64,000 nt of DNA, taken from assembly GCF_030013205.1 (NCBI RefSeq), contig NZ_CP122648.1; one strand, written 5' to 3'. Source of the stretch: Escherichia coli. GTDB lineage: Bacteria > Pseudomonadota > Gammaproteobacteria > Enterobacterales > Enterobacteriaceae. Made by a program: the position numbers and the translations under genes. Of this stretch, positions 1-49,031 are shown one piece after another (within the stretch, counting starts at the first letter, position 1; each line of letters starts with the position of its first letter). The notes under the pieces are model-generated. The model worked only from the letters and a program-made list of their open reading frames with translations. It had not been told where the DNA came from and did not search any database.

Positions 1-146
1 GATTCATTCTTACCGCAGGCGCGGGTTCGAGGTTAAGAAAGCTCTCAGTCTCGACTATCGGCACTGGATAATCTCTGTCAGGCTGCCTTATTCCGAACGC
101 CCACCACGTGCGTCCCGCACTTTCCAGCAACGGATCTGGAGGTAAC

Positions 147-1196
147 GTGCGGGTATTACTTAGACCTGTTCTGGTGCCTGAGCTTGGGCTGGTGGTCCTT
201 AAGCCGGGCCGTGAATCCATACAGATATTTCATAATCCTCGAGTGCTGGTGGAACCGGAACCAAAAAGCATGCGTAATCTGCCATCCGGAGTCGTTCCTG
301 CCGTTCGCCAGCCGCTGGCGGAAGACAAAACATTGCTGCCGTTTTTTAGTAACGAACTGGTGATTCGTGCTGCTGGCGGCGTTGGCGCATTGTCCGACTG
401 GCTATTACGTCATGTTACATCCTGCCAGTGGCCTAATGGCGATTACCATCACACTGAAACAGTCATTCACCGTTATGGTACCGGCGCAATGGTGTTGTGC
501 TGGCACTGCGACAACCAACTGCGTGACCAGACATCGGAATCACTGGAGCTGCTTGCTCAACAAAATCTGACAGCATGGGTGATTGACGTCATCCGTCACG
601 CAATAAGCGGTACGCAGGAGCGGGAATTATCTTTGGCTGAATTATCCTGGTGGGCGGTCTGCAATCAGGTGGTGGATGCACTACCTGAGGCTGTATCGCG
701 TCGTTCGCTGGGATTACCAGCGGAAAAAATCTGCTCGGTGTACCGCGAAAGCGACATCGTACCGGGAGAGCAGACCGCCACCAGCATATTGAAACAACGC
801 ACAAAAAATCTTGCACCGTTGCCTTACGCCCACCAGCAACAAAAATCACCACAGGAAAAGACGGTGGTAAGAATCACCGTTGATCCAGAGTCTCCGGAAT
901 CTTTCATGAAGCTGCCTAAACGTCGCCGCTGGGTTAAGGAGAAATACACACGTTGGGTTAAGACACAGCCGTGTGCTTGCTGCGGTATGCCAGCCGACGA
1001 TCCGCATCATCTGATTGGTCACGGGCAGGGCGGAATGGGAACAAAAGCACATGATCTCTTTGTGTTGCCTTTGTGCAGAAAGCATCACAACGAGCTGCAT
1101 ACGGATACAGTGGCATTTGAAGATAAGTATGGCTCCCAACTGGAGCTGATATTTCGTTTTATCGATCGCGCGCTGGCAATTGGCGTACTGGCGTAA
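147..1196 (+). CDS. ydfU: DUF968-family prophage protein with C-terminal Cys/His cluster (HNH-like)
   Basis: ORF track 108..1196. GTG at 147 is preceded by GGAGGT and gives the 349 aa length recalled for K-12 YdfU. C-terminus carries CACCG...HH...CRKHH. Confidence 0.65.
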   Translation: MRVLLRPVLVPELGLVVLKPGRESIQIFHNPRVLVEPEPKSMRNLPSGVVPAVRQPLAEDKTLLPFFSNELVIRAAGGVGALSDWLLRHVTSCQWPNGDYHHTETVIHRYGTGAMVLCWHCDNQLRDQTSESLELLAQQNLTAWVIDVIRHAISGTQERELSLAELSWWAVCNQVVDALPEAVSRRSLGLPAEKICSVYRESDIVPGEQTATSILKQRTKNLAPLPYAHQQQKSPQEKTVVRITVDPESPESFMKLPKRRRWVKEKYTRWVKTQPCACCGMPADDPHHLIGHGQGGMGTKAHDLFVLPLCRKHHNELHTDTVAFEDKYGSQLELIFRFIDRALAIGVLA

Positions 1197-1209
1197 GTGG
1201 AGAACGAGC

Positions 1210-1962
1210 ATGAACCTTGAAGCCTTACCAAAATATTACTCCCCAAAATCTCCAAAATTGAGCGATGACGCTCCAGCGACAGGCACCGGTTGTTTAACAA
1301 TTACGGATGTAATGGCAGCGCAGGGGATGGTGCAGTCGAAAGCACCACTTGGGTTGGCCTTATTTCTGGCAAAAGTTGGTGTTCAGGACCCTCAGTTTGC
1401 GATTGAAGGCCTGCTAAATTACGCGATGGCACTGGATAACCCGACATTGAACAAATTGAGTGAAGAAATCCGGTTACAGATTATTCCTTACCTCGTGAGT
1501 TTTGCCTTTGCTGATTACTCCAGGTCTGCGGCAAGTAAGGCTCGCTGTGAGCATTGTTCAGGTACGGGATTTTATAATGTATTGCGCGAAGTGGTGAAAC
1601 ACTACAGACGCGGGGAATCTGTAATCAAGGAAGAATGGGTGAAGGAACTATGTCAGCATTGCCATGGTAAGGGCGAAGCCAGCACAGCGTGCAGAGGGTG
1701 TAAGGGTAAAGGGATTGTTCTGGATGAAAAAAGAACCCGGTTTCATGGCGTACCGGTATATAAGATTTGTGGGCGTTGTAATGGAAACCGGTTTAGTCGT
1801 TTACCGACCACGCTGGCACGACGTCATGTCCAGAAGCTGGTACCAGACCTGACCGATTATCAGTGGTATAAGGGGTATGCGGACGTCATTGGTAAACTGG
1901 TAACAAAGTGCTGGCAGGAAGAAGCATACGCGGAAGCGCAATTGAGGAAGGTGACGAGATAA
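1210..1962 (+). CDS. quuQ: Late-gene antitermination protein Q
   Basis: ORF 1180..1962; internal ATG at 1210 gives 250 aa. Cys-rich zinc-finger-like motifs (CEHCSGTG, CQHCHGKG, CRGCKGKG, CGRCNG). Position is immediately upstream of the late promoter/terminator and lysis genes. Confidence 0.8.
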   Translation: MNLEALPKYYSPKSPKLSDDAPATGTGCLTITDVMAAQGMVQSKAPLGLALFLAKVGVQDPQFAIEGLLNYAMALDNPTLNKLSEEIRLQIIPYLVSFAFADYSRSAASKARCEHCSGTGFYNVLREVVKHYRRGESVIKEEWVKELCQHCHGKGEASTACRGCKGKGIVLDEKRTRFHGVPVYKICGRCNGNRFSRLPTTLARRHVQKLVPDLTDYQWYKGYADVIGKLVTKCWQEEAYAEAQLRKVTR

Positions 1963-1993
1963 ATGATTTTTGCTGAAGATGGCGACATGATGT

Positions 1994-2022
1994 TTGCATT
2001 TTTCAAAAAATATGGATAAAAT
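1994..2022 (+). promoter_or_regulatory. Candidate PR-prime-like late promoter (-35 TTGCAT 1994-1999, 17 bp spacer, -10 TAAAAT 2017-2022)
   Basis: Sigma70-like hexamers read directly from the sequence, directly downstream of the Q gene and about 45 bp upstream of a strong intrinsic terminator, as in lambdoid late-control regions. Confidence 0.4.
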
Positions 2023-2066
2023 TTTTTCAACGATGGGCTTTGTATACCCGACGTTAAGAAAAAGTA

Positions 2067-2098
2067 GAAAACCCGCTGATGAGCGGGTTTTGTGCTTT
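2067..2098 (+). terminator. Intrinsic terminator (tR-prime-like) downstream of Q
   Basis: Stem ACCCGC / GCGGGT with loop TGATGA, followed by a T-rich tract TTTTGTGCTTT. Confidence 0.6.
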
Positions 2099-2383
2099 AA
2101 ATGGGGCAATGGTAATGTTGAATCTCATCCCGGGACTCATGTCTGTTAACTTATTATTTAGCTGGTGACTTGGTTATTTGCCTGATGTTTAAAATGTTTT
2201 CTTCCAGTACAATGTCCCTAAACACAATGAGTCTGCTTATTATATTATTAGCAGAGCTATTACGGCCAAAGTACAGCATAAGCTTTTAAAGCCAATCAAC
2301 CAGTCATCAAGACAGACGGGGTTATTCATAAAAACTCTCCATGTGTGATCCGATGGGGCCTGAAATTAAAGCTTTAATATAGC

Positions 2384-2596
2384 TCATGAAAGGTAAACAT
2401 TGGCAGCTGAAGGGCCACGCAGACCATTTATCCGGCAAAATTCCACGCGTAATCCGGTGGTAATTTCTTCTGCATCGCGGAGATTGAGCGCTGAAACATG
2501 AAGCTGGACATCGATACGACCATCGGATGGGGTGATAAGACCCTTGCCGCTTTTGCCGTCAAAGGTTTTGACAATTCCTGTCATTTTACGGGACAA
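2384..2596 (-). CDS. cspF: Cold-shock-domain protein CspF
   Basis: 70 aa [16 protein letters not shown]... with the cold-shock-domain fold pattern; matches recalled K-12 CspF. Confidence 0.9.
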
Positions 2597-2896
2597 AAAA
2601 ATTCCTTAATACTGATAACTTGGCGCACTATACACACGTTCCTGAAGAAAGCTATAGTTTTTTGATGGGGTTGAAGATGGCTGGATGTCTAAAATAAACA
2701 TTGCTTCATATGTTCAACTATGCGTTAATGATTGCGTCGGTTTGAAGAACAGACGATATACGAAGTAGTTTACTAAAGCAGTTCTCATTTCAGGTGTTAT
2801 TCACTTATTCCTTCTTTGAGTCTCTCCAATTAAGTACGAAGTCGTTTCTGTTATGCAAACCATTTATGCCGAAAGGCTCAAGTTAAGGAATGTAGA

Positions 2897-3112
2897 ATGT
2901 CAAATAAAATGACTGGTTTAGTAAAATGGTTTAACGCTGATAAAGGTTTCGGCTTTATTTCTCCTGTTGATGGTAGTAAAGATGTGTTTGTGCATTTTTC
3001 TGCGATTCAGAATGATAATTATCGAACCTTATTTGAAGGTCAAAAGGTTACCTTCTCTATAGAGAGTGGTGCTAAAGGTCCTGCAGCAGCAAATGTCATC
3101 ATTACTGATTAA
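2897..3112 (+). CDS. cspB: Cold-shock protein CspB
   Basis: 71 aa [24 protein letters not shown]... with RNP1-like motif (KGFGFI); long upstream leader typical of cold-shock genes. Confidence 0.9.
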
Positions 3113-3393
3113 AATTCATCGCTCGTCTGTATACGATAACGAAGAAGGCTGATGCCTGAGTAGAGATACGGACAGAGTAGTGAATATTGGATCTCTTTAA
3201 TAAAAAGTAAGGAGGTCCAATACATGAAACAATGGCTAGCATATTTGGCAAAATCTTAATCAGGAAAAGTATGCTAACCATTGTGGTGAAGTGCAGGTTT
3301 GCTGAATGAATAGTTTTACAGCAGAAGCTAACTGCTGGCATGGCAAAACAAAGTGCGTAAGTGGATGACTCCCACAAAAAGCACCACAATCTC

Positions 3394-3417
3394 AAACCCG
3401 CTCAGGCGGGTTTTTTA
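3394..3417 (+). terminator. Intrinsic terminator downstream of cspB
   Basis: Stem CCCGC / GCGGG with loop TCAG, followed by TTTTTT. Confidence 0.6.
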
Positions 3418-3475
3418 TTATCTGCTTTAAATATATTATTAAAATATAAAAAATACTTGTTACTAATAAAATCAA

Positions 3476-3646
3476 TCAGGCTACAGCTTTAAGATTTGTC
3501 TGGAATACTTTGTTGCAATGAGGGCAGATCAAAAGGGCACCTTTTTGTACTCTTGAAAAACTGTGTTCTGACTCTTGGGTGCAGTTTGGGCAGGAACATT
3601 TAACGAGATAATTACGGCGTGATTTTGAGTTTTTACGTTCTGACAT
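3476..3646 (-). CDS. ynfU: Small zinc-ribbon protein (CxCPxC ... CPxC), YnfU-like
   Basis: ORF 3476..3697; internal ATG at 3644-3646 with an AGGAAAAG Shine-Dalgarno-like sequence gives 56 aa MSERKNSKSRRNYLVKCSCPNCTQ...CPHCNKVF. The gene name is from memory and uncertain. Confidence 0.45.
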   Translation of the reverse strand: MSERKNSKSRRNYLVKCSCPNCTQESEHSFSRVQKGALLICPHCNKVFQTNLKAVA

Positions 3647-3865
3647 AGGCTTTTCCTGTATAAATGGCCGTATACAGTACACTAAATATGAAAACATTTC
3701 TCGTATTATTATTTTATATATGACTTTCTTTCAAAATAATTACCCACATTTTTAATGTGTATGTTTTTTTAGCGCCGTTGAGAACAACGTGTGCTGTCAA
3801 AACTACCCCGTAGACTCCGATCTTTTCAAACATATTGCACCATCCGTGTACATCGGGGTGAGGAT

Positions 3866-4081
3866 ATGAAATCAATGGATAAGTTAACAACAGGTGTTGC
3901 CTATGGCACATCGGCGGGTAATGCTGGTTTCTGGGCATTGCAGTTACTCGATAAAGTAACTCCGTCACAGTGGGCTGCAATCGGTGTGCTGGGTAGCCTG
4001 GTTTTTGGCCTGCTGACGTATCTGACAAATCTTTATTTCAAGATTAAAGAAGACAGGCGTAAGGCTGCGAGAGGAGAGTAA
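3866..4081 (+). CDS. essQ: Phage holin, phage-21 S-type (pinholin-like), with dual start motif MKSMDK
   Basis: ATG at 3866 preceded by GGGGTGAGGA; 71 aa with a hydrophobic transmembrane core and charged C-terminus; directly upstream of the endolysin. Confidence 0.8.
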
Positions 4082-4085
4082 TCCA

Positions 4086-4393
4086 ATGACTCAAGACTAT
4101 GAACTGGTTGTGAAAGGAGTCCGTAATTTTGAGAATAAAGTTACGGTAACTGTAGCCTTACAGGACAAAGAACGCTTTGACGGTGAAATTTTTGACCTGG
4201 ATGTCGCCATGGACCGTGTTGAAGGAGCTGCGCTGGAGTTTTATGAGGCAGCAGCCAGAAGGAGCGTCCGGCAAGTCTTCCTGGAAGTAGCAGAAAAATT
4301 GTCAGAAAAAGTTGAGTCTTATCTGCAGCATCAGTACTCCTTTAAGATTGAAAATCCTGCCAATAAGCACGAGCGTCCTCATCATAAATATCT

Positions 4394-4397
<4 letters not shown>
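4086..4397 (+). CDS. ydfR: Prophage protein of unknown function (DUF1327-like) located between holin and endolysin
   Basis: 103 aa ORF; its stop overlaps the endolysin start (4394..4397), suggesting translational coupling. Confidence 0.7.
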
Positions 4398-5421
<1,024 letters not shown>

Positions 5422-5782
5422 GGTAATATTAAATCGGAACATTTACATCGCGGAATGTAAAATTTAAATAAAAAGGACTCTTCCATGAGCCAAAATTCCT
5501 GAAATCTTAAGGGTAAGATAAAAGGTCTTAATCAGAATGACACGTTTTATTAATAAATAAAGCTATTCTTTCATTGCTGTGTTTTTCTTTACAAAAGTAA
5601 TCCTTGCTATGGGTGGTTAATCATGCGTTAATGGTGTTCTGGTTTGTTACAAATTTATCTGAAGCAGTCATTGTTATAATTTTATTATTTGTACCTCTTG
5701 AGATTTCCTTGTTGGTTTTTCTCTCTGATATTTTTTTCGGACCATTCTGCCCAAGGGCTAATTTCTTCAAAAGGTAATAATT

Positions 5783-5995
5783 ATGTCTAACAAAATGACT
5801 GGTTTAGTGAAATGGTTTAACCCTGAAAAAGGTTTTGGTTTCATCACGCCGAAAGATGGCAGCAAAGATGTGTTTGTCCATTTCTCAGCAATTCAGAGCA
5901 ACGATTTCAAAACATTAACTGAGAATCAGGAAGTTGAATTTGGTATTGAGAACGGACCTAAAGGTCCTGCCGCTGTTCATGTAGTGGCGCTTTGA
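5783..5995 (+). CDS. cspI: Cold-shock protein CspI
   Basis: 70 aa [26 protein letters not shown]..., a paralogue of cspB. Confidence 0.9.
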
Positions 5996-6194
5996 GGTAG
6001 ACAATATTACAAACCATATTCACTTTAGATGCCCGTGTTGTCATGGTTCCCAGTATAGAACATCATCTTTTGATGTTTCTGACATGAATCCTTTCGGGGC
6101 AAAATGTATCTTTTGTAAATCAATGATGATTACATTTGATAATATTTCACAATACTTAAATGCCAGCCGTCTGTCGTTGGATTTGAAAAAGTGA
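5985..6194 (+). other. Zinc-ribbon-like open frame (CPCC...CIFC) with no in-frame ATG/GTG/TTG upstream of the first Cys pair; possible pseudogene or unconventional start
   Basis: Frame is open from 5985 to the TGA at 6192-6194; encodes ...RCPCCHGSQYRTSSFDVSDMNPFGAKCIFCKSMMITF...; resembles the zinc-ribbon ORF at 3476..3646; followed by a hairpin plus T-run at about 6199-6226. Confidence 0.3.
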
Positions 6195-6341
6195 AAATGA
6201 AGGCTCCTTCGGGAGCTTTTTTGCTTGGTGTCTATTCGATGGATACTCACATACTACGGTAACATCATGAAAAAAATCATAGTTTTTTTTAACTCTGAAC
6301 CAGCAGTGGTAGTGCCAGCGATGACTGGAGTTAACACCATC

Positions 6342-6497
6342 ATGCGTGAATATCCAAATGGCGAAAAAACACACCTTACTGTAATGGCCGCAGGGTTTCC
6401 ATCTCTGACCGGAGATCATAAAGTCATTTATGTAGCCGCGGATCGACATGTTACTTCAGAAGAAATTCTGGAAGCAGCAATAAGGCTCTTGAGTTGA
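6342..6497 (+). CDS. ynfN: Small prophage protein (51 aa), YnfN-like
   Basis: ORF track 6225..6497; internal ATG at 6342 gives 51 aa MREYPNGEKTHLTVMAAGFPSLTGDH.... The start choice and the name are uncertain. Confidence 0.4.
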   Translation: MREYPNGEKTHLTVMAAGFPSLTGDHKVIYVAADRHVTSEEILEAAIRLLS

Positions 6498-6668
6498 TTT
6501 GATGCTATTGCATTGATAATTCAGGAAAATTCTCTTTGTCTGTTTGTGTAAAATTTAGACTATCGTATGTTGATTATTGCGATGTTTCATCTTATCTTTT
6601 ACACGTTTGCACCATATAATCGACTTACTGTGTAACTGGAAAGTCATAACAGACTAAAAGAGGAAATG

Positions 6669-6842
6669 ATGAATATTGAAAACTTAAAAACAAAAGCAGA
6701 AGCAGATATTTCTGAATATATAACAAAAAAAATTATTGAACTTAAGAAAAAGACCGGGAAAGAAGTTACCAGTATTCAGTTTACCGCACGGGAAAAAATG
6801 ACGGGTCTTGAAAGCTATGATGTCAAGATTAATTTAATCTGA
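6669..6842 (+). CDS. gnsB: GnsA/GnsB-family small protein (57 aa)
   Basis: Below the 60 aa track cut-off, so read by hand: ATGATG at 6666-6671, stop TGA at 6840-6842; MNIENLKTKAEADISEYITKKIIELKKKTGKEVTSIQFTAREKMTGLESYDVKINLI; AGGAAA Shine-Dalgarno-like sequence upstream. Confidence 0.65.
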   Translation: MNIENLKTKAEADISEYITKKIIELKKKTGKEVTSIQFTAREKMTGLESYDVKINLI

Positions 6843-6993
6843 TGTATTCAATAATAAAATTTATCCATAAACCTCGTTTTTACGGGGTTTTGTTATATTT
6901 GAATGGTTCCGAATATCTAAATCACAATTGTTGATGGTTTTTATTAAACCAATGCAGTCCGGCTCAGGAGTGAGAGAAGCCGGACGTTATGGT

Positions 6994-7419
6994 TTAGCGT
7001 GGTAAGATCTGTGTAGTTTTCTGGATGCTTTCAGTAAATAGTAATGAATTATCAAAGGTATAGTAATATCTTTTTTGTTCGTGGATATTTGTAACCCACC
7101 GAAAAACTCCTGCTTTAGCAAGGTTTCTTCTGTATTCCTGAAATGTGATCTCTCTGGATTTCAGCTTATTAGAGGTCGTTTCTATAAGATGCCTATCCTT
7201 TGAAAATTTGACAGACACAATGTTTTTTAGGCCCTTTAATAACACTGTATTATCATTTTTTAATACAATATGAACATTCTCTGTGGCTAAATAGTAAATG
7301 TAATGTGAGACATTGTGACGTTTTAGCTCAGAATAAAACCATTGATAGTTTAAATCGTTTCGAACTTTATCAAATATTTGTTTAAAAATGACTACCTGAT
7401 CCATAGATAAACCTTCCAT
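6994..7419 (-). CDS. ydfO: DUF1398-family prophage protein
   Basis: 141 aa ORF (alternative start at 7404 gives 136 aa); co-directional with and immediately downstream of the ribbon-helix-helix gene. Confidence 0.7.
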
Positions 7420-7461
7420 GTGATATGAGGGGGCGTAGTCTGCACGATTATCTAAATTGCT

Positions 7462-7695
7462 TCAATCTGGTCTGACCTGTTTTCTGAGCAATTCAGTAAT
7501 GTCACTCTTTTCTTTGTTTGCTTCAGAAGAAACTCTTTTTTCTGAGCACAGTCTCCGGCGGCAGGCTTCAATGACCCAGGCTGAGAAATTCCCGGACCCT
7601 TTTTGCTCAAGAGCGATGTTAATTTGTTCAATCATTTGGTTAGGAAAGCGGATGTTGCGGGTTGTTGTTCTGCGGGTTCTGTTCTTCGTTGACAT
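7462..7695 (-). CDS. ynfO: Small ribbon-helix-helix-like DNA-binding protein
   Basis: 77 aa; segment RNIRFPNQMIEQINIALEQKG...NFSAWVIEACRRRL fits a beta-strand plus two helices as in Arc/CopG-type proteins. Confidence 0.6.
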   Translation of the reverse strand: MSTKNRTRRTTTRNIRFPNQMIEQINIALEQKGSGNFSAWVIEACRRRLCSEKRVSSEANKEKSDITELLRKQVRPD

Positions 7696-7799
7696 GAGGT
7701 TGCCCCGTATTCAGTGTCGCTGATTTGTATTGTCTGAAGTTGTTTTTACGTTAAGTTGATGCAGATCAATTAATACGATACCTGCGTCATAATTGATTA

Positions 7800-8083
7800 T
7801 TTGACGTGGTTTGATGGCCTCCACGCACGTTGTGATATGTAGATGATAATCATTATCGCTTTACGGGTCCTTTCCGGTGATCCGACAGGTTACGGGGCGG
7901 CGACCTCGCGGGTTTTCGCTATTTATGAAAATTTTCCGGTTTAAGGTGTTTCCGTTCTTCTTCGTCGTAACTTAATGTTTTTATTTAAAATACCCCCTGA
8001 AAAGAAAGGAAACGACAGGTGCTGAAAGCGAGCTTTTTGGCCTCTGTCGTTTCCTTTCTCTGTTTTTGTCCGTGGAATGAGCA
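7800..8083 (+). other. Lambda-type cos site (cosQ/cosN/cosB); cosN 12-nt cohesive-end sequence GGGCGGCGACCT at 7895..7906
   Basis: The sequence around 7881-8083 matches the recalled junction of the lambda right and left ends (..TCCGACAGGTTACG | GGGCGGCGACCTCGCGGGTTTTCGCTATTTATGAAAATTTTCCGGTTTAAGG..), followed by the Nu1-like gene. Confidence 0.75.
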
Positions 8084-8629
8084 ATGGAAGTCAACAAAAA
8101 GCAGCTGGCTGACATTTTCGGTGCGAGTATCCGTACCATTCAGAACTGGCAGGAACAGGGAATGCCCGTTCTGCGAGGCGGTGGCAAGGGTAATGAGGTG
8201 CTTTATGACTCTGCCGCCGTTATAAGATGGTATGCCGAAAGGGATGCTGAAATTGAGAACGAAAAGCTGCGCCGGGAAGTTGAAGAACTGCGGCAGGCCA
8301 GCGAGACAGATCTCCAGCCAGGGACTATTGAGTACGAACGCCATCGACTTACGCGTGCGCAGGCCGACGCACAGGAGCTGAAAAATGCCAGAGACTCCGC
8401 TGAAGTGGTGGAAACCGCATTCTGTACTTTCGTGCTGTCGCGGATCGCAGGTGAAATTGCCAGTATTCTCGACGGGATCCCCCTGTCGGTGCAGCGGCGT
8501 TTTCCGGAACTGGAAAACCGACATGTTGATTTCCTGAAACGGGATATCATCAAAGCCATGAACAAAGCAGCCGCGCTGGATGAACTGATACCGGGGTTGC
8601 TGAGTGAATATATCGAACAGTCAGGTTAA
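8084..8629 (+). CDS. nohA: Terminase small subunit (lambda Nu1 homologue)
   Basis: 181 aa MEVNKKQLADIFGASIRTIQNWQEQGMPV..., essentially lambda Nu1 with a winged-HTH N-terminus. Confidence 0.85.
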   Translation: MEVNKKQLADIFGASIRTIQNWQEQGMPVLRGGGKGNEVLYDSAAVIRWYAERDAEIENEKLRREVEELRQASETDLQPGTIEYERHRLTRAQADAQELKNARDSAEVVETAFCTFVLSRIAGEIASILDGIPLSVQRRFPELENRHVDFLKRDIIKAMNKAAALDELIPGLLSEYIEQSG

Positions 8630-10088
8630 CAGGCTGCGGCATTTTGTCCGCGCCGGGCTTCGCTCACTGTTCAGGCCGGAGCCACAGACCGCCGTTGAAT
8701 GGGCGGATGCTAATTACTATCTCCCGAAAGAATCCGCATACCAGGAAGGGCGCTGGGAAACACTGCCCTTTCAGCGGGCCATCATGAATGCGATGGGCAG
8801 CGACTACATCCGTGAGGTGAATGTGGTGAAGTCTGCCCGTGTTGGTTATTCCAAAATGCTGCTGGGTGTTTATGCCTACTTCATAGAGCATAAGCAGCGC
8901 AACACCCTTATCTGGTTGCCGACGGATGGTGATGCCGAGAACTTTATGAAAACTCACGTTGAGCCGACCATCCGTGATATTCCTTCGCTGCTTGCGCTGG
9001 CCCCGTGGTATGGCAAAAAGCACCGGGATAACACGCTCACCATGAAGCGTTTCACCAATGGTCGTGGCTTCTGGTGCCTGGGCGGTAAAGCGGCAAAAAA
9101 CTACCGTGAAAAGTCGGTGGATGTGGCGGGTTATGATGAACTTGCTGCTTTTGATGATGATATTGAACAGGAAGGCTCTCCGACGTTCCTGGGTGACAAG
9201 CGTATTGAAGGCTCGGTCTGGCCAAAGTCCATCCGTGGCTCCACGCCCAAAGTGAGAGGCACCTGCCAGATTGAGCGTGCAGCCAGTGAATCCCCGCATT
9301 TTATGCGTTTTCATGTTGCCTGCCCGCACTGCGGGGAGGAGCAGTACCTTAAATTTGGCGATAAAGAGACGCCGTTTGGCCTCAAATGGACGCCGGATGA
9401 TCCCTCCAGCGTGTTTTATCTCTGCGAGCATAATGCCTGCGTCATCCGCCAGCAGGAGCTGGACTTTACTGATGCCCGTTATATCTGCGAAAAGACCGGG
9501 ATCTGGACCCGTGATGGCATTCTCTGGTTTTCGTCATCCGGTGAAGAGATTGAGCCGCCGGACAGTGTGACCTTTCACATCTGGACGGCGTACAGCCCGT
9601 TCACCACCTGGGTGCAGATTGTCAAAGACTGGATGAAAACGAAAGGGGATACGGGAAAACGTAAAACCTTCGTGAACACCACGCTCGGTGAGACGTGGGA
9701 AGCGAAAATCGGCGAACGTCCGGATGCTGAAGTGATGGCAGAGCGGAAAGAGCATTATTCAGCGCCCGTTCCTGACCGTGTGGCTTACCTGACCGCCGGT
9801 ATCGACTCCCAGCTGGACCGCTACGAAATGCGCGTATGGGGATGGGGGCCGGGTGAGGAAAGCTGGCTGATTGACCGGCAGATTATTATGGGCCGCCACG
9901 ACGATGAACAGACGCTGCTGCGTGTGGATGAGGCCATCAATAAAACCTATACCCGCCGGAATGGTGCAGAAATGTCGATATCCCGTATCTGCTGGGATAC
10001 TGGCGGGATTGACCCGACCATTGTGTATGAACGCTCGAAAAAGCATGGGCTGTTCCGGGTGATCCCCATTAAAGGGGCATCCGTCTAA
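8604..10088 (+). pseudogene. Terminase large subunit (lambda gpA homologue), N-terminal 494 codons only; truncated by an internal prophage deletion
   Basis: GTG start overlapping nohA; protein matches the recalled lambda gpA N-terminus up to ...[10 protein letters not shown], then a stop. Lambda continues YGKPVASMPRKRNKNG, which is absent here. Confidence 0.8.
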
Positions 10089-10149
10089 GGGACGCTTCCT
10101 GAACAACATTAACGCGGTCAGTAAAACAGACTTTGCTGATAAGCGTGGT

Positions 10150-11904
10150 ATGCGTTATGTGCGGGTTAACGCTCCTGCAGGTGCAACATCTGGAAAATAT
10201 TACCCTGTTGTTGTTATGCGTTCTGCTGGCTCAGTAAGCGAACTGGCATCAAGGGTCATTATCACCACGGCACCGCGAACCGCAGGCGATCCGATGAATA
10301 ACTGCGAGTTTAACGGATTTGTTATGCCTGGTGGCTGGACTGACAGGGGGCGTTATGCTTATGGAATGTTCTGGCAATATCAAAACAATGAACGAGCCAT
10401 CCACTCAATAATGATGAGTAATAAGGGCGATGATTTGCGCTCTGTGTTCTATGTTGATGGCGCTGCTTTCCCTGTTTTTGCGTTTATCGAAGATGGCCTG
10501 TCAATATCCGCACCTGGTGCTGATCTCGTTGTTAATGATACGACCTATAAGTTTGGGGCAACAAATCCAGCGACTGAATGTATCGCGGCGGACGTTATCC
10601 TTGATTTTAAGAGTGGGCGTGGTTTTTATGAGTCTCATTCGTTAATCGTTAACGATAACTTGTCGTGCAAAAAACTTTTTGCCACAGACGAAATTGTAGC
10701 GCGTGGTGGTAATCAGATTCGAATGATAGGTGGGGAGTATGGTGCATTATGGCGTAATGATGGCGCTAAAACTTACCTGCTGCTTACCAATCAAGGTGAT
10801 GTTTATGGTGGCTGGAATACATTAAGACCGTTTGCTATTGATAACGCAACCGGCGAACTGGTTATTGGAACCAAACTGTCCGCAAGTCTGAACGGTAATG
10901 CATTAACAGCAACAAAGCTGCAAACGCCAAGACTGGTTTCTGGTGTTGAGTTTGATGGTTCCAAAGATATTACTTTAACCGCCGCGCATGTGGCTGCTTT
11001 TGCCAGAAGGGCAACGGATACATATGCCGATGCGGATGGTGGCGTTCCCTGGAATGCCGAATCAGGCGCTTACAATGTCACCCGCTCTGGCAACAGCTAT
11101 ATTCTGGTTAACTTCTATACCGGAGTCGGAAGTTGCCGGACATTGCAGATGAAGGCGCATTACAGAAATGGAGGTCTGTTCTACCGTTCCTCAAGAGATG
11201 GCTATGGTTTTGAGGAAGACTGGGCAGAAGTTTATACCTCGAAAAATCTTCCACCAGAAAGCTACCCAGTCGGTGCACCAATCCCGTGGCCATCAGATAC
11301 CGTTCCGTCTGGTTATGCCCTGATGCAGGGGCAGACTTTTGACAAATCTGCTTACCCGAAACTTGCAGCCGCTTATCCGTCAGGCGTGATCCCTGATATG
11401 CGTGGCTGGACGATTAAGGGCAAACCTGCCAGTGGTCGGGCCGTATTGTCTCAGGAACAGGACGGCATTAAATCGCACACCCACAGCGCCAGCGCATCCA
11501 GTACGGATTTGGGGACGAAAACCACATCGTCGTTTGATTACGGCACTAAATCCACGAATAACACCGGGGCGCATACCCATAGTGTTAGCGGTACGGCTGC
11601 TTCAGCCGGTGCACATACCCATTCGATAACATTTGTTTCAGGTGGCACCAAAGGTGCTCCGGGAAGTGGATCACCTGATTATTCTAAATACAGTGTTAAC
11701 ACTTCTTCTGCAGGCGCTCATACGCACTCTGTATCGGGTACTGCTGCAAGCGCAGGTGCACACGCACATACTGTAGGTATTGGTGCGCATACGCACTCGG
11801 TTGCGATTGGTTCACATGGACACACCATCACCGTTAACGCTGCTGGTAACGCGGAAAACACCGTCAAAAACATCGCATTTAACTATATTGTGAGGCTTGC
11901 ATAA
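10150..11904 (+). CDS. stfQ: Side tail fibre protein fragment (Stf-like C-terminal region)
   Basis: 584 aa ORF with repeated GAHTHS motifs near the C-terminus, typical of lambda Stf / T-even long-tail-fibre tips; followed by a Tfa gene; upstream end abuts the terminase deletion junction. Confidence 0.6.
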
Positions 11905-47004: not shown

Positions 47005-48027
47005 TCAGAAATCGTATTTGCCGATATTCTCTTTGTTGAATATCACGCGCTCCGGTAACAGTACGATGCCATTACCATCCGCTTCGTAGTCATAGCCCTG
47101 AACGCTGTTTGGCGAGACTTCCACCTGACCTACGCCCTGAATATCCAGCTTGTCGCCCGTTTTCATTGATCCTTTTTTCAATAATTCATCCGCGACATAA
47201 ACTGAAATTTTGCCTTGCTGAACCACATCCCACAGGCCAAATTCTTTCACCGTGCCGCGTTCCACATACGGACGCATCACGTTTGGCGTACTGAATCCGA
47301 CAATCGCAACTTTGTCATTTTTCAGGTTTTCTGCGGCTTGTGCGGCAGCGGGCAGGGCGTTGGCGTCGGGGGCGATAATGGCGTCGAGATCGCTATACGC
47401 TTTTAATATTCCTTCTGCGGTTTGTAATGATTTAGTGGCATCGTTATAGCCAAACTGCGTAGTGACAATTTCCCAGCCAGGATGCTCTTTGGCGATTTTC
47501 GCTTTCGCTTCTTTCACCCACTGGTTTTGGTCCGTAACGGTGGGGCTTGAGTAGAAAAACGCGACTTTGGCTTTGTCTTTATTTACCTGACGCGCCGCCA
47601 TATCCACCAACATACCTCCCAACTGGGCGGGCGTTCCCTGATTAATGTAGTAAGAGCGGCACTCCGGTTTAGTATCAGAGTCCCAGGTCAGCACTCTCAC
47701 ACCACGTTGCATGGCGCGTTTCAGTGCCGGACACAAGCCATCAGGCGAAACCGCAGAAACGATAATGGCGTTATAACCCTGATTAACGAAGTTATTAATC
47801 AACTGTACCTGACCAGAAACACTGGGTTCTGTCGGCCCGTCGTAGGTCACATCAACGCCCAGCTCTTTACCCGCTTGTTGTGCGCCGTTGCCACCGCTGG
47901 TAAAAAATCCCACGCCAACCAGTTTGGGAATAAATGCAATACGCTCTGCGGCCTGCACATTCATAGAGATTGCGGCAATGCCAAGCGCGCTAAGTAAGGC
48001 GATTTTCTTAAAGCGATGAAGTGTCAT
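47005..48027 (-). CDS. lsrB: AI-2 periplasmic binding protein
   Basis: 340 aa with signal peptide; ribose-binding-protein-like fold. Confidence 0.85.
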
Positions 48028-48038
48028 GAAGATATCCT

Positions 48039-49031
48039 TTATGGCAATGGGTTATTGGCCCGACGCGCCAGCCACTCTTTAATTTGCTGGCGATGCAGGC
48101 TAACGGAACGACCTACGACAACGACGATAAGTAGCGCACCGGAAAGGGCGCTGGACACCTGATTTGGCACTCCTGCCATTTGCAAACCTTGTTGCAAATA
48201 TCCCACTAATAAAACCGCAATGGCGGTGCCGATAATGGAACCGGAACCACCATAAATATTGGCACCGCCAAGCACCACGGCGGTGATGGCGGGCATCAGA
48301 AACGACGCACCGAGATCGGAACGTGCTGAACCAAAATACGACACCAGCAGCACAGCGGCGACCGCAGACGCCAGCCCCGTCATGGCATAGAGCGCACATA
48401 AGGTACGGTTAACTGGAATCGCGCTATAAAGCGCCACGCGCGGGCTTTGCCCAATCAAAAACACGTTACGTCCGGCATGGGTTTTATGCAGCCAGAGCCA
48501 GAAAACGAGGAGACATATCAGGAAGATAATCAGCGGAACGGGGAGTCCCAGTACATCCAGGTTAGCGAAATCTGTAAACGCCATCGGGAATCCACCAATA
48601 CCTTCGTACCCCGTCGCTCCGGCCATCCCGGAAAGCAGCAGGGCACTTCCGGCAAACAGATACAGCGTGCCAAGCGTAATCACCAGCGGGTTAACTTTGG
48701 TATAGATAATTAATCCGGCGTTGATCAGCCCGCACAATGCGCCGAGCAGTAAGGTCAGAAGAATCGCCAGCGGCATCGGCACACCACTTTGAAACAGTAC
48801 GCCCAATGCAATGGCGCAGAGGCCGATAGTCGAACCAAACGAAATATCGATCCCGCCACTGACAATCACCATCGTCAGCGGTAGGGCGACAATGCCAATG
48901 CAAATAAAGTCACTGGTGCTGAACAGCAACATATTGAGATCTAACATCCGCGGGTTAATTGCACCAAATGCAACAATCTCAATAACGAGCAGTGCGGCAA
49001 GAGCCAGTTCCCAACCGTAGCGAATACGCAT
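48039..49031 (-). CDS. lsrD: AI-2 ABC transporter permease
   Basis: 330 aa membrane permease. Confidence 0.85.

Follow-up and report, generated by a model that had tools for sequence, protein, structure and literature searches.

Do a small DNA-binding protein and the larger gene that follows it on the same strand form a functional module, or have two unrelated genes come to lie side by side? This question was raised by two minus-strand genes in a 64,000-nucleotide stretch of Escherichia coli DNA (contig NZ_CP122648.1; hereafter the window), for which an earlier note had proposed a two-gene prophage operon of toxin-antitoxin (TA) or regulator-effector type. Both open reading frames (ORFs) were present in the window (Table 1). 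The 1.5-kb block around them was 100% identical to many E. coli chromosomes, in which RefSeq names the genes gnsB, ydfO, ynfO and nohA, and the wider context of this block (relBE, hokD, cspB/F/I, rrrQ, rzpQ, tfaQ and pinQ) was that of the Qin cryptic prophage. Because the RefSeq annotation matched, the pair is the already known ynfO-ydfO; both genes are already catalogued as members of a Qin-type cryptic lambdoid prophage. The small gene lies directly upstream of the DUF1398 gene on the same strand, as had been described, and the two are separated by 42 nt if ydfO starts with the ATG at 7419 or by 57 nt if it starts, as in RefSeq, at 7404. The true start of ydfO is likely to be 7404, which has the better Shine-Dalgarno sequence (GGAAGG) and is conserved in YbcV and YcgX.

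Table 1. Features of the ynfO-ydfO region, with coordinates counted from the first nucleotide of the window.
Feature	Coordinates	Strand	Description and basis
ydfO	6994..7404	-	DUF1398 protein; 136 aa from the RefSeq start at 7404, 141 aa from 7419
ynfO	7462..7695	-	77-aa YlcI/YnfO-family (DUF3950) protein; Pfam, NCBIfam NF041551, RefSeq name
Predicted ribbon-helix-helix core of YnfO	7537..7668	-	residues ~10-53: strand 10-18, helix 19-32, helix 37-53
Qin-specific 54-bp junction	7479..7532		replaces the 613-bp ybcW/lambdap79 segment; codes for the YnfO tail; blastn against lambda and DLP12
PdhR-box-like palindrome AACAGGTCAGACCAGAT	7465..7481	-	overlaps the ynfO stop; 61-77 nt upstream of the ydfO start
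Inverted repeat, 13-nt arms, 7-nt spacer	7765..7797		70-100 nt upstream of ynfO; candidate operator/promoter element
GC-rich hairpin, 8-bp stem GTCCGGCT/AGCCGGAC	6957..6985		just past the ydfO stop; read from the sequence
cosQ (GGGTCCT)	7865-7871	+	exact match; homology to the lambda right end
cosN, 12-nt cohesive-end sequence	7895-7906	+	exact match; homology to the lambda right end
nohA (Nu1-type small terminase, first packaging gene)	8084..8629	+	divergent from ynfO; Pfam Phage_Nu1 E 2.4e-101; RefSeq nohA

The two genes lie between the lysis cassette (Rz) and cos, antisense to the late operon, and GC content was 28-37% in the ynfO/ydfO region versus 52-58% in nu1/A. The distance from the ynfO start to the cos cut was 199 bp, exactly as for the homologous ORF in lambda; the names cosQ and cosN in Table 1 are those that we take, from established knowledge of lambda, to apply to these sites. 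Beyond nohA, the large-terminase ORF ends at 10088 and a tail-fibre ORF (10150-11904, plus strand) comes next, both being partial in RefSeq. The region 8604-11904 spans the large Qin deletion of head and tail genes, with cosQ, cosN and nohA intact. On the other side, ynfN and gnsB (6225-6842, plus strand) adjoin ydfO on the opposite strand. A family search with ynfN gave no match, and the Pfam name for GnsB is 'GnsA/GnsB toxin of a toxin-antitoxin system', so that any annotated TA-like gene in this neighbourhood, if there is one, is gnsB rather than ydfO. Farther out, a full-length cspA-type thermoregulator 5' UTR was found at 5638-6022 on the plus strand, before and into cspI (Rfam RF01766, 114 bits).

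YnfO belongs to the YlcI/YnfO family. It matched both Pfam DUF3950 (PF13132; E 2.7e-21, 75.6 bits against a cut-off of 25) and NCBIfam NF041551 (YlcI_YnfO_N; 36.6 bits against a cut-off of 30) above the curated cut-offs. The family is small, with 120 clusters at E<=0.001 in a representative search. Two word-indexed homology searches were dominated by nearly identical sequences from E. coli and from lambda control DNA. A match of YnfO to a 'transcriptional repressor' of the Pasteurella 'phage' Pmp7 was discarded, being antisense to an annotated gene.

We then asked whether YnfO is a ribbon-helix-helix (RHH) protein. A profile of 21 diverse DUF3950 domains found no RHH protein among PDB sequences at E<=10, and the sole RHH-type match in a Pfam scan of all 21 members was RHH_6 (E 0.12, one member). 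YnfO differed from Arc/Mnt of phage P22 in having no significant profile match to them: the Pfam Arc profile was missed, and hhalign against Arc (whose sequence was checked against 1ARQ) gave a probability of 12.6%, with a gapless alignment in the expected register (RNIRFP on Arc FNLRWP). Because sequence-only methods fell short, the claim for an RHH fold rests on structure prediction. RHH proteins fold as dimers only, and we therefore built an AF2 model in which a Gly/Ser linker connected two copies of residues 1-56, with the alignment built in the same way. In the best model, each half had the strand-helix-helix topology of an RHH protein over ~45 residues (Table 1), with a core pLDDT of 71-78; one of five models converged. 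The two paired strands were the only strands in the model and formed the two-stranded antiparallel ribbon of a predicted intertwined dimer, which superposed on solved RHH dimers. Further, Foldseek matched the model with a probability of 0.99-1.0 to F-plasmid relaxosome chains labelled TraY, and CopG-family antitoxin domains were also among the structural matches. The RHH-like character ascribed to the 77-aa protein was thereby supported by structure prediction (sequence profiles added little), and the predicted RHH fold of YnfO is well supported. From this model we infer that YnfO binds DNA. The protein consists of a basic N-terminal arm, the beta-strand TRNIRFP, two helices and a disposable tail.

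When ynfO codons 1-47 were compared with Stx-phage homologues, the synonymous and non-synonymous codon differences numbered 11 and 4, 18 and 4, and 21 and 5, respectively. These codon counts indicate that codons 1-47 of ynfO are under purifying selection and that the ORFs are not chance ones. The 5' coding region of ynfO also holds a direct repeat, AACCCGCA, in two copies 15 bp apart (7656-7678), and the homologue in PPyecE has the same C-to-T change (ATCCGCA) in both copies. The paired change could be a coincidence, a gene conversion or the mark of a cis element.

The partner proved to be a DUF1398 protein, as had been proposed. YdfO matched Pfam DUF1398 (PF07166) above cut-off with E 1.7e-46, and 140 of 141 residues were identical to PDB 2HH8 ('hypothetical protein ydfO'), an entry that was solved by NMR for the E. 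coli protein. YdfO is cytoplasmic, of alpha/beta type and internally duplicated, and its fold is otherwise without a match: a fold search with its structure found nothing. The labels 'head protein' and 'putative envelope protein' that PHROG and RefSeq give to DUF1398 were treated as annotation noise, because the fold search was empty and the gene is non-essential. YdfO was 79% identical to YbcV of DLP12, 79% identical to lambdap78 of lambda and 44% identical to the chromosomal YcgX. YbcV and lambdap78 share the family, the fold and the place of YdfO (from the lysis genes to cos); unlike in YdfO, ybcW intervenes before the DUF3950 gene. YcgX has the same family and fold, but its gene adjoins bluR.

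Published data on these proteins were examined next. Expression of ydfO was induced ~100-fold by ionic liquid, strongly and transiently (PMC4077768). Knock-down of the DUF1398 gene lambdap78 did not affect plating (PMC10695390), and an ASKA clone over-expressing ybcV was viable and was scored for a glycogen phenotype (PMC2853380). Two further statements in the literature were not accepted. The claim that over-expression of YdfO leads to oxidative-stress/peroxide resistance (PMC4077768) was rejected as a mis-citation: the source cited for it (Wang 2010; PMC3105296) deals with YfdK, YfdO and YfdS of CPS-53 and never mentions ydfO. This mix-up of the gene names ydfO and yfdO could propagate in the literature. 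In an in-silico study of drug targets, ydfO is kept as an 'essential' E. coli protein (PMC8229198). That entry cannot be right, because deletions of the whole of Qin are viable (PMC3105296), and it is probably an artefact of ybcV paralogy in the source essentiality list.

Is the pair then a type II TA module, in which YnfO would be an RHH antitoxin and autorepressor and YdfO a toxin, perhaps RNase-like, that YnfO neutralises? Like RHH antitoxins of the CopG/ParD/RelB-like kind, YnfO has an N-terminal RHH domain followed by a tail, and it is encoded ahead of a larger, co-directional gene. In contrast to these antitoxins, neither the YnfO tail nor the partner gene is conserved, and the partner matched no toxin family. 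The C-terminal tail of an RHH antitoxin is the place of toxin binding; in YnfO, no conserved toxin-binding region was found in the tail outside the DNA-binding domain. Pfam and NCBIfam scans of both proteins gave no toxin family, YdfO had neither the family nor the fold of a known toxin, and a PADLOC defence-system scan gave no matches. Nor was a conserved adjacent pair found, as DUF3950 stands alone in Stx-type phages and DUF1398 stands alone at ycgX and at one prophage locus (L008, below). YdfO thus gave no sign of being a toxin, and the indirect evidence from the viable ybcV clone, the neutral lambdap78 knock-down and a natural locus with ynfO truncated but ydfO intact is that it is non-toxic cargo; the hosts in which DUF1398 proteins were over-produced probably each carried chromosomal copies of DUF3950. 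Since pair, tail and partner all differ from those of TA systems, the typical type II layout assumed in the earlier note was not supported, and we consider a TA module very improbable.

To determine whether the two families travel together, we counted them in 5426 complete E. coli genomes, scoring blocks at >=80% coverage. The DUF3950 core was found at 9860 places in 4183 genomes, whereas the Qin-type adjacent block was found in ~1023 genomes and the DLP12-type tripartite block in ~1360. Most DUF3950 copies therefore have no DUF1398 neighbour, and the co-occurrence across genomes that a dedicated pair called for was largely absent. The Stx-type phages and prophages examined contained DUF3950 and no DUF1398; downstream of DUF3950, these prophages had a hypothetical gene and KilA-N, a TonB-like gene, or a hypothetical gene alone. 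Divergent DUF3950 homologues belonged to an ICE-like region and to a TonB-receptor/CopC operon, and no DUF1398 was called near them. On the side of DUF1398, ycgX was matched in 5375 of the 5426 genomes, and ycgX-type loci of Escherichia and Citrobacter had no DUF3950 gene within 5 kb. A genome-wide search for distant DUF1398 loci, with patterns that were too specific, yielded 11 loci (Escherichia, Citrobacter and contaminated MAGs). Short MAG contigs labelled Collinsella sp. (L175) and Candidatus Nanosynbacter sp. (L177) carried the ynfO-ydfO block of E. coli prophages with a DUF1398 75% identical to YdfO, and are almost certainly cases of binning contamination.

At prophage-type loci whose flanks were long enough, a DUF3950 gene nearly always lay 0.1-0.7 kb upstream of DUF1398. 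The exception was L008, in which DUF1398 and ybcW lie beside a different terminase without DUF3950. Such proximity is expected if both genes live in the Rz-to-cos interval of Nu1-type phages. Both ORFs were intact in 123 of 125 Qin-type loci; in one of the other two (L047), ynfO was truncated at codon 39 and ydfO was intact, and in the other the reverse was found. We concluded that ynfO and ydfO are not an obligate module and that their partnership is facultative. Thus, the pair fails as a candidate new TA or defence module and should not be carried forward as one.

The origin of the adjacency became clear from lambda and DLP12. Phage lambda contains an intact 64-codon DUF3950 ORF (48110-48303, minus strand) 199 bp from its right end, which is absent from the annotation of J02459 and NC_001416. 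The first 54 codons and residues of this ORF were 98% identical to those of ynfO and YnfO. Because its homologues show mainly synonymous divergence, the ORF is probably a real lambda gene. The ylcI gene of DLP12, whose first 54 codons were also 98% identical to ynfO at the DNA level, and the lambda ORF have the position of ynfO, at the same distance from the cos cut and divergent from nu1/nohD. In contrast to Qin, the gene downstream of DUF3950 in DLP12 and lambda is ybcW/lambdap79 on the opposite strand, not DUF1398. The DLP12 order ybcV, ybcW, ylcI is the layout of lambda, and DUF1398 is ~680 bp (684) from DUF3950 in both; among the loci, gaps fell into classes of ~115 bp and ~684 bp.

When the window was aligned with lambda by blastn, positions 6975-7478 matched lambda 47023-47527 with 84% identity and positions 7533-7894 matched lambda 48141-48502 with 98% identity. 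The 613 bp that lie between both blocks in lambda, comprising the ybcW/lambdap79 segment, were replaced by 54 bp in the window. The junction follows ynfO codon 54, and the YnfO tail is therefore the product of this replacement. The tails differ accordingly between YnfO (27 residues, from the Qin junction) and YlcI (14 residues), and DUF3950 tails could not be aligned across the family past ~residue 50. As read from these alignments, the ynfO-ydfO adjacency is a lineage-specific rearrangement in Qin-type prophages. The replacement fused the 54 conserved N-terminal DUF3950 codons to a new tail and put ydfO, with its own upstream region including the PdhR box, directly behind ynfO.

Even so, the rearrangement might have created a dedicated regulator-effector operon, in which YnfO of Qin-type prophages represses the ynfO-ydfO transcript and so gates ydfO. 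The two genes are on the same strand with a 57-nt gap, and a terminator scan found no terminator-like site between them, so that read-through from ynfO into ydfO is possible. The hairpin just past the ydfO stop (Table 1), which was absent from the output of that scan, may possibly mark the end of the leftward transcript. Further in favour of an operon, the arrangement recurs with two DUF1398 alleles (~100% and ~75% identity) and is thus not a one-off, and ydfO is inducible, as described above. However, ydfO keeps the upstream block of ybcV. This conserved block reaches 7478 and includes both the PdhR box and a -10-like GATAAT (7447-7452), suggesting that ydfO probably has its own promoter. The palindrome AACAGGTCAGACCAGAT is the site that PdhR SELEX has been reported to give for ynfO/ydfO, with an equivalent site between ybcV and ybcW, and ybcV mRNA was down 10-fold in a pdhR mutant (PMC7660256). 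Moreover, ybcV is expressed although its transcription unit has no DUF3950 gene upstream.

Nor was an operator found for such an operon, either in promoter and repeat scans or by 8-mer comparison. The promoter scan gave no sigma-70-like (consensus) promoter upstream of ynfO. The inverted repeat upstream of ynfO (Table 1) was identical in lambda, DLP12 and 2H10, an identity that has no comparative power because lambda-type copies are ~98% identical there. The flanks of lambda-type and Stx-type DUF3950 copies shared no 8-mer, although the DNA-reading strand is identical, and a conserved operator next to the DUF3950 gene is therefore not evident. Finally, DUF3950 copies elsewhere have unrelated downstream neighbours. 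A dedicated operon is therefore unlikely: of the 'TA-like or regulator-effector pair' proposed in the earlier note, the TA part falls, and the looser notion of a regulator plus cargo may hold for the Qin arrangement.

If DUF1398 is not the constant neighbour of DUF3950, which gene is? In every phage context examined, the DUF3950 gene lay directly upstream of the first packaging gene and ran in the divergent direction. This arrangement held for two unrelated packaging modules, namely Nu1/cos (lambda, DLP12, Qin and 2H10) and HNH + TerS (Stx2a_WGPS8, Lys8385Vzw and PPyecE), in the latter of which the gap between DUF3950 and HNH was only 42 bp. What DUF3950 constantly adjoins is thus the start of the packaging module and not DUF1398. 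Between both packaging contexts, only the first 141 bp of the DUF3950 gene, an N-terminal coding block, were conserved.

DUF3950 genes were also found in phage satellites. In the divergent homologues P0310 and P0328, DUF3950 is fused to a TerS-type helix-turn-helix; both are borne by small integrase-primase-TerS-capsid elements. One such element is a satellite of ~7 kb with the order integrase-AlpA-primase-TerS-capsid (L162/L163, ~1-6900; E. coli CP027459 and AP026754; also L161 and L164). In two E. coli genomes, the satellite, with two DUF3950 genes aboard, interrupted the TerS gene of an Stx-like prophage; a satellite inside the TerS gene of its helper corresponds to the configuration described as a 'helper-embedded satellite' (bioRxiv 10.1101/2022.07.18.500453). 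The C-terminal 53 residues of the fusion matched the SF6 TerS DNA-binding domain in the PDB and shared 64% identity with residues 2-54 of the helper TerS that the insertion interrupts. The fusion protein could thus be a decoy or a redirector for the helper packaging site. The second DUF3950 gene of the satellite, 60 aa in length, lies just upstream of the fusion, divergently to the replication operon. Before this gene, a TATAAT stands between two GGTACGTACC palindromes in the classic operator layout, and the fusion gene is preceded by three to four GTTWAACAC repeats. Judged by their sequence, these palindromes and repeats (L162, 4546-4588 and 4891-4944) look like operator or iteron arrays. The satellite arrangement supports a DNA-binding regulatory role for DUF3950, and the fusions hint at a link between DUF3950 and packaging, which they motivate rather than prove.

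These observations suggest another reading, in which the function of DUF3950 is tied to the packaging boundary, for example by silencing terminase or late genes in the lysogen or in a conflict over cos/terminase between phages or between phage and satellite, with ydfO as unrelated cargo. In favour of this are the constant position across two unrelated packaging modules, the restriction of conservation to the 141-bp coding block, and the carriage of DUF3950 genes by helper-embedded satellites, one of them fused to a TerS DNA-binding domain. On the other hand, the constant position may mean no more than that accessory genes recombine often at a hot spot between lysis and head modules, homologues that are more remote occur in non-phage contexts, a domain fusion attests modularity rather than function, and no DNA motif was common to the cos and HNH surroundings. 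We therefore regard this reading as unlikely. It would make YnfO, YlcI and the lambda ORF a conserved lysogen-expressed DNA binder at the packaging boundary that controls or contests cos/terminase, a role to which we give a small chance. Similarly slight is the chance that satellites captured DUF3950 and fused it to a copy of the helper TerS DNA-binding domain, the presence of ydfO being incidental. The Listeria TerI packaging-inhibitor system was considered as an analogue and discarded, as it had no link to the locus in sequence or position.

The reading that we favour, at slightly better than even chances, is that ynfO and ydfO are two independent accessory genes, an Arc-like DNA binder and a non-toxic cargo gene with its own control region, that were made neighbours by rearrangement. 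Both class as accessory ('moron'-type) genes of the variable, AT-rich stretch that separates the lysis cassette from cos: their place between Rz and cos, the variable neighbours, the deviant GC content and the antisense orientation are those of morons, and lambdap78 is non-essential. The bor-type morons of lambda occupy the same Rz-to-cos interval and, like ynfO/ydfO, are antisense, AT-rich and dispensable for lytic growth; unlike ynfO/ydfO, bor has a demonstrated host phenotype, namely serum resistance. YnfO would most likely be an Arc/Mnt-like dimer that binds DNA sequence-specifically and controls local transcription, the regulatory role being suggested by the model; in contrast to Arc/Mnt of P22, no ant-type target gene was found in Qin or lambda. 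YdfO may be passively co-expressed by read-through from ynfO, and it is dispensable for lytic growth of lambda.

Alternatively, both genes may be functionless remnants carried along in a decaying cryptic prophage. Qin is defective, its large terminase being truncated and fused to a tail-fibre gene; ynfO lacked a recognisable sigma-70-like promoter, and the AT-rich region is typical of silenced foreign DNA. However, nearly all Qin-type loci keep both ORFs intact, as counted above, and synonymous changes predominate in the DUF3950 core. Further, ydfO is inducible, a ylcI transcript has been detected, as a convergent excludon with ybcW in DLP12 (PMC12288877), and intact lambda retains both genes. 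We consider it quite improbable that the two genes are mere remnants.

The present results place DUF3950 (YlcI/YnfO), which had no assigned fold in the libraries searched, in the ribbon-helix-helix class on the basis of the predicted models. In phage lambda itself, a member of this family that lacks annotation, and is probably a real gene under selection, lies 199 bp from cos. The link of DUF3950 to the packaging boundary is the only part of this work with some upside. Together, these findings give a concrete starting place for the function of two y-ome genes of E. coli K-12 and of a domain that is reused by phage satellites.
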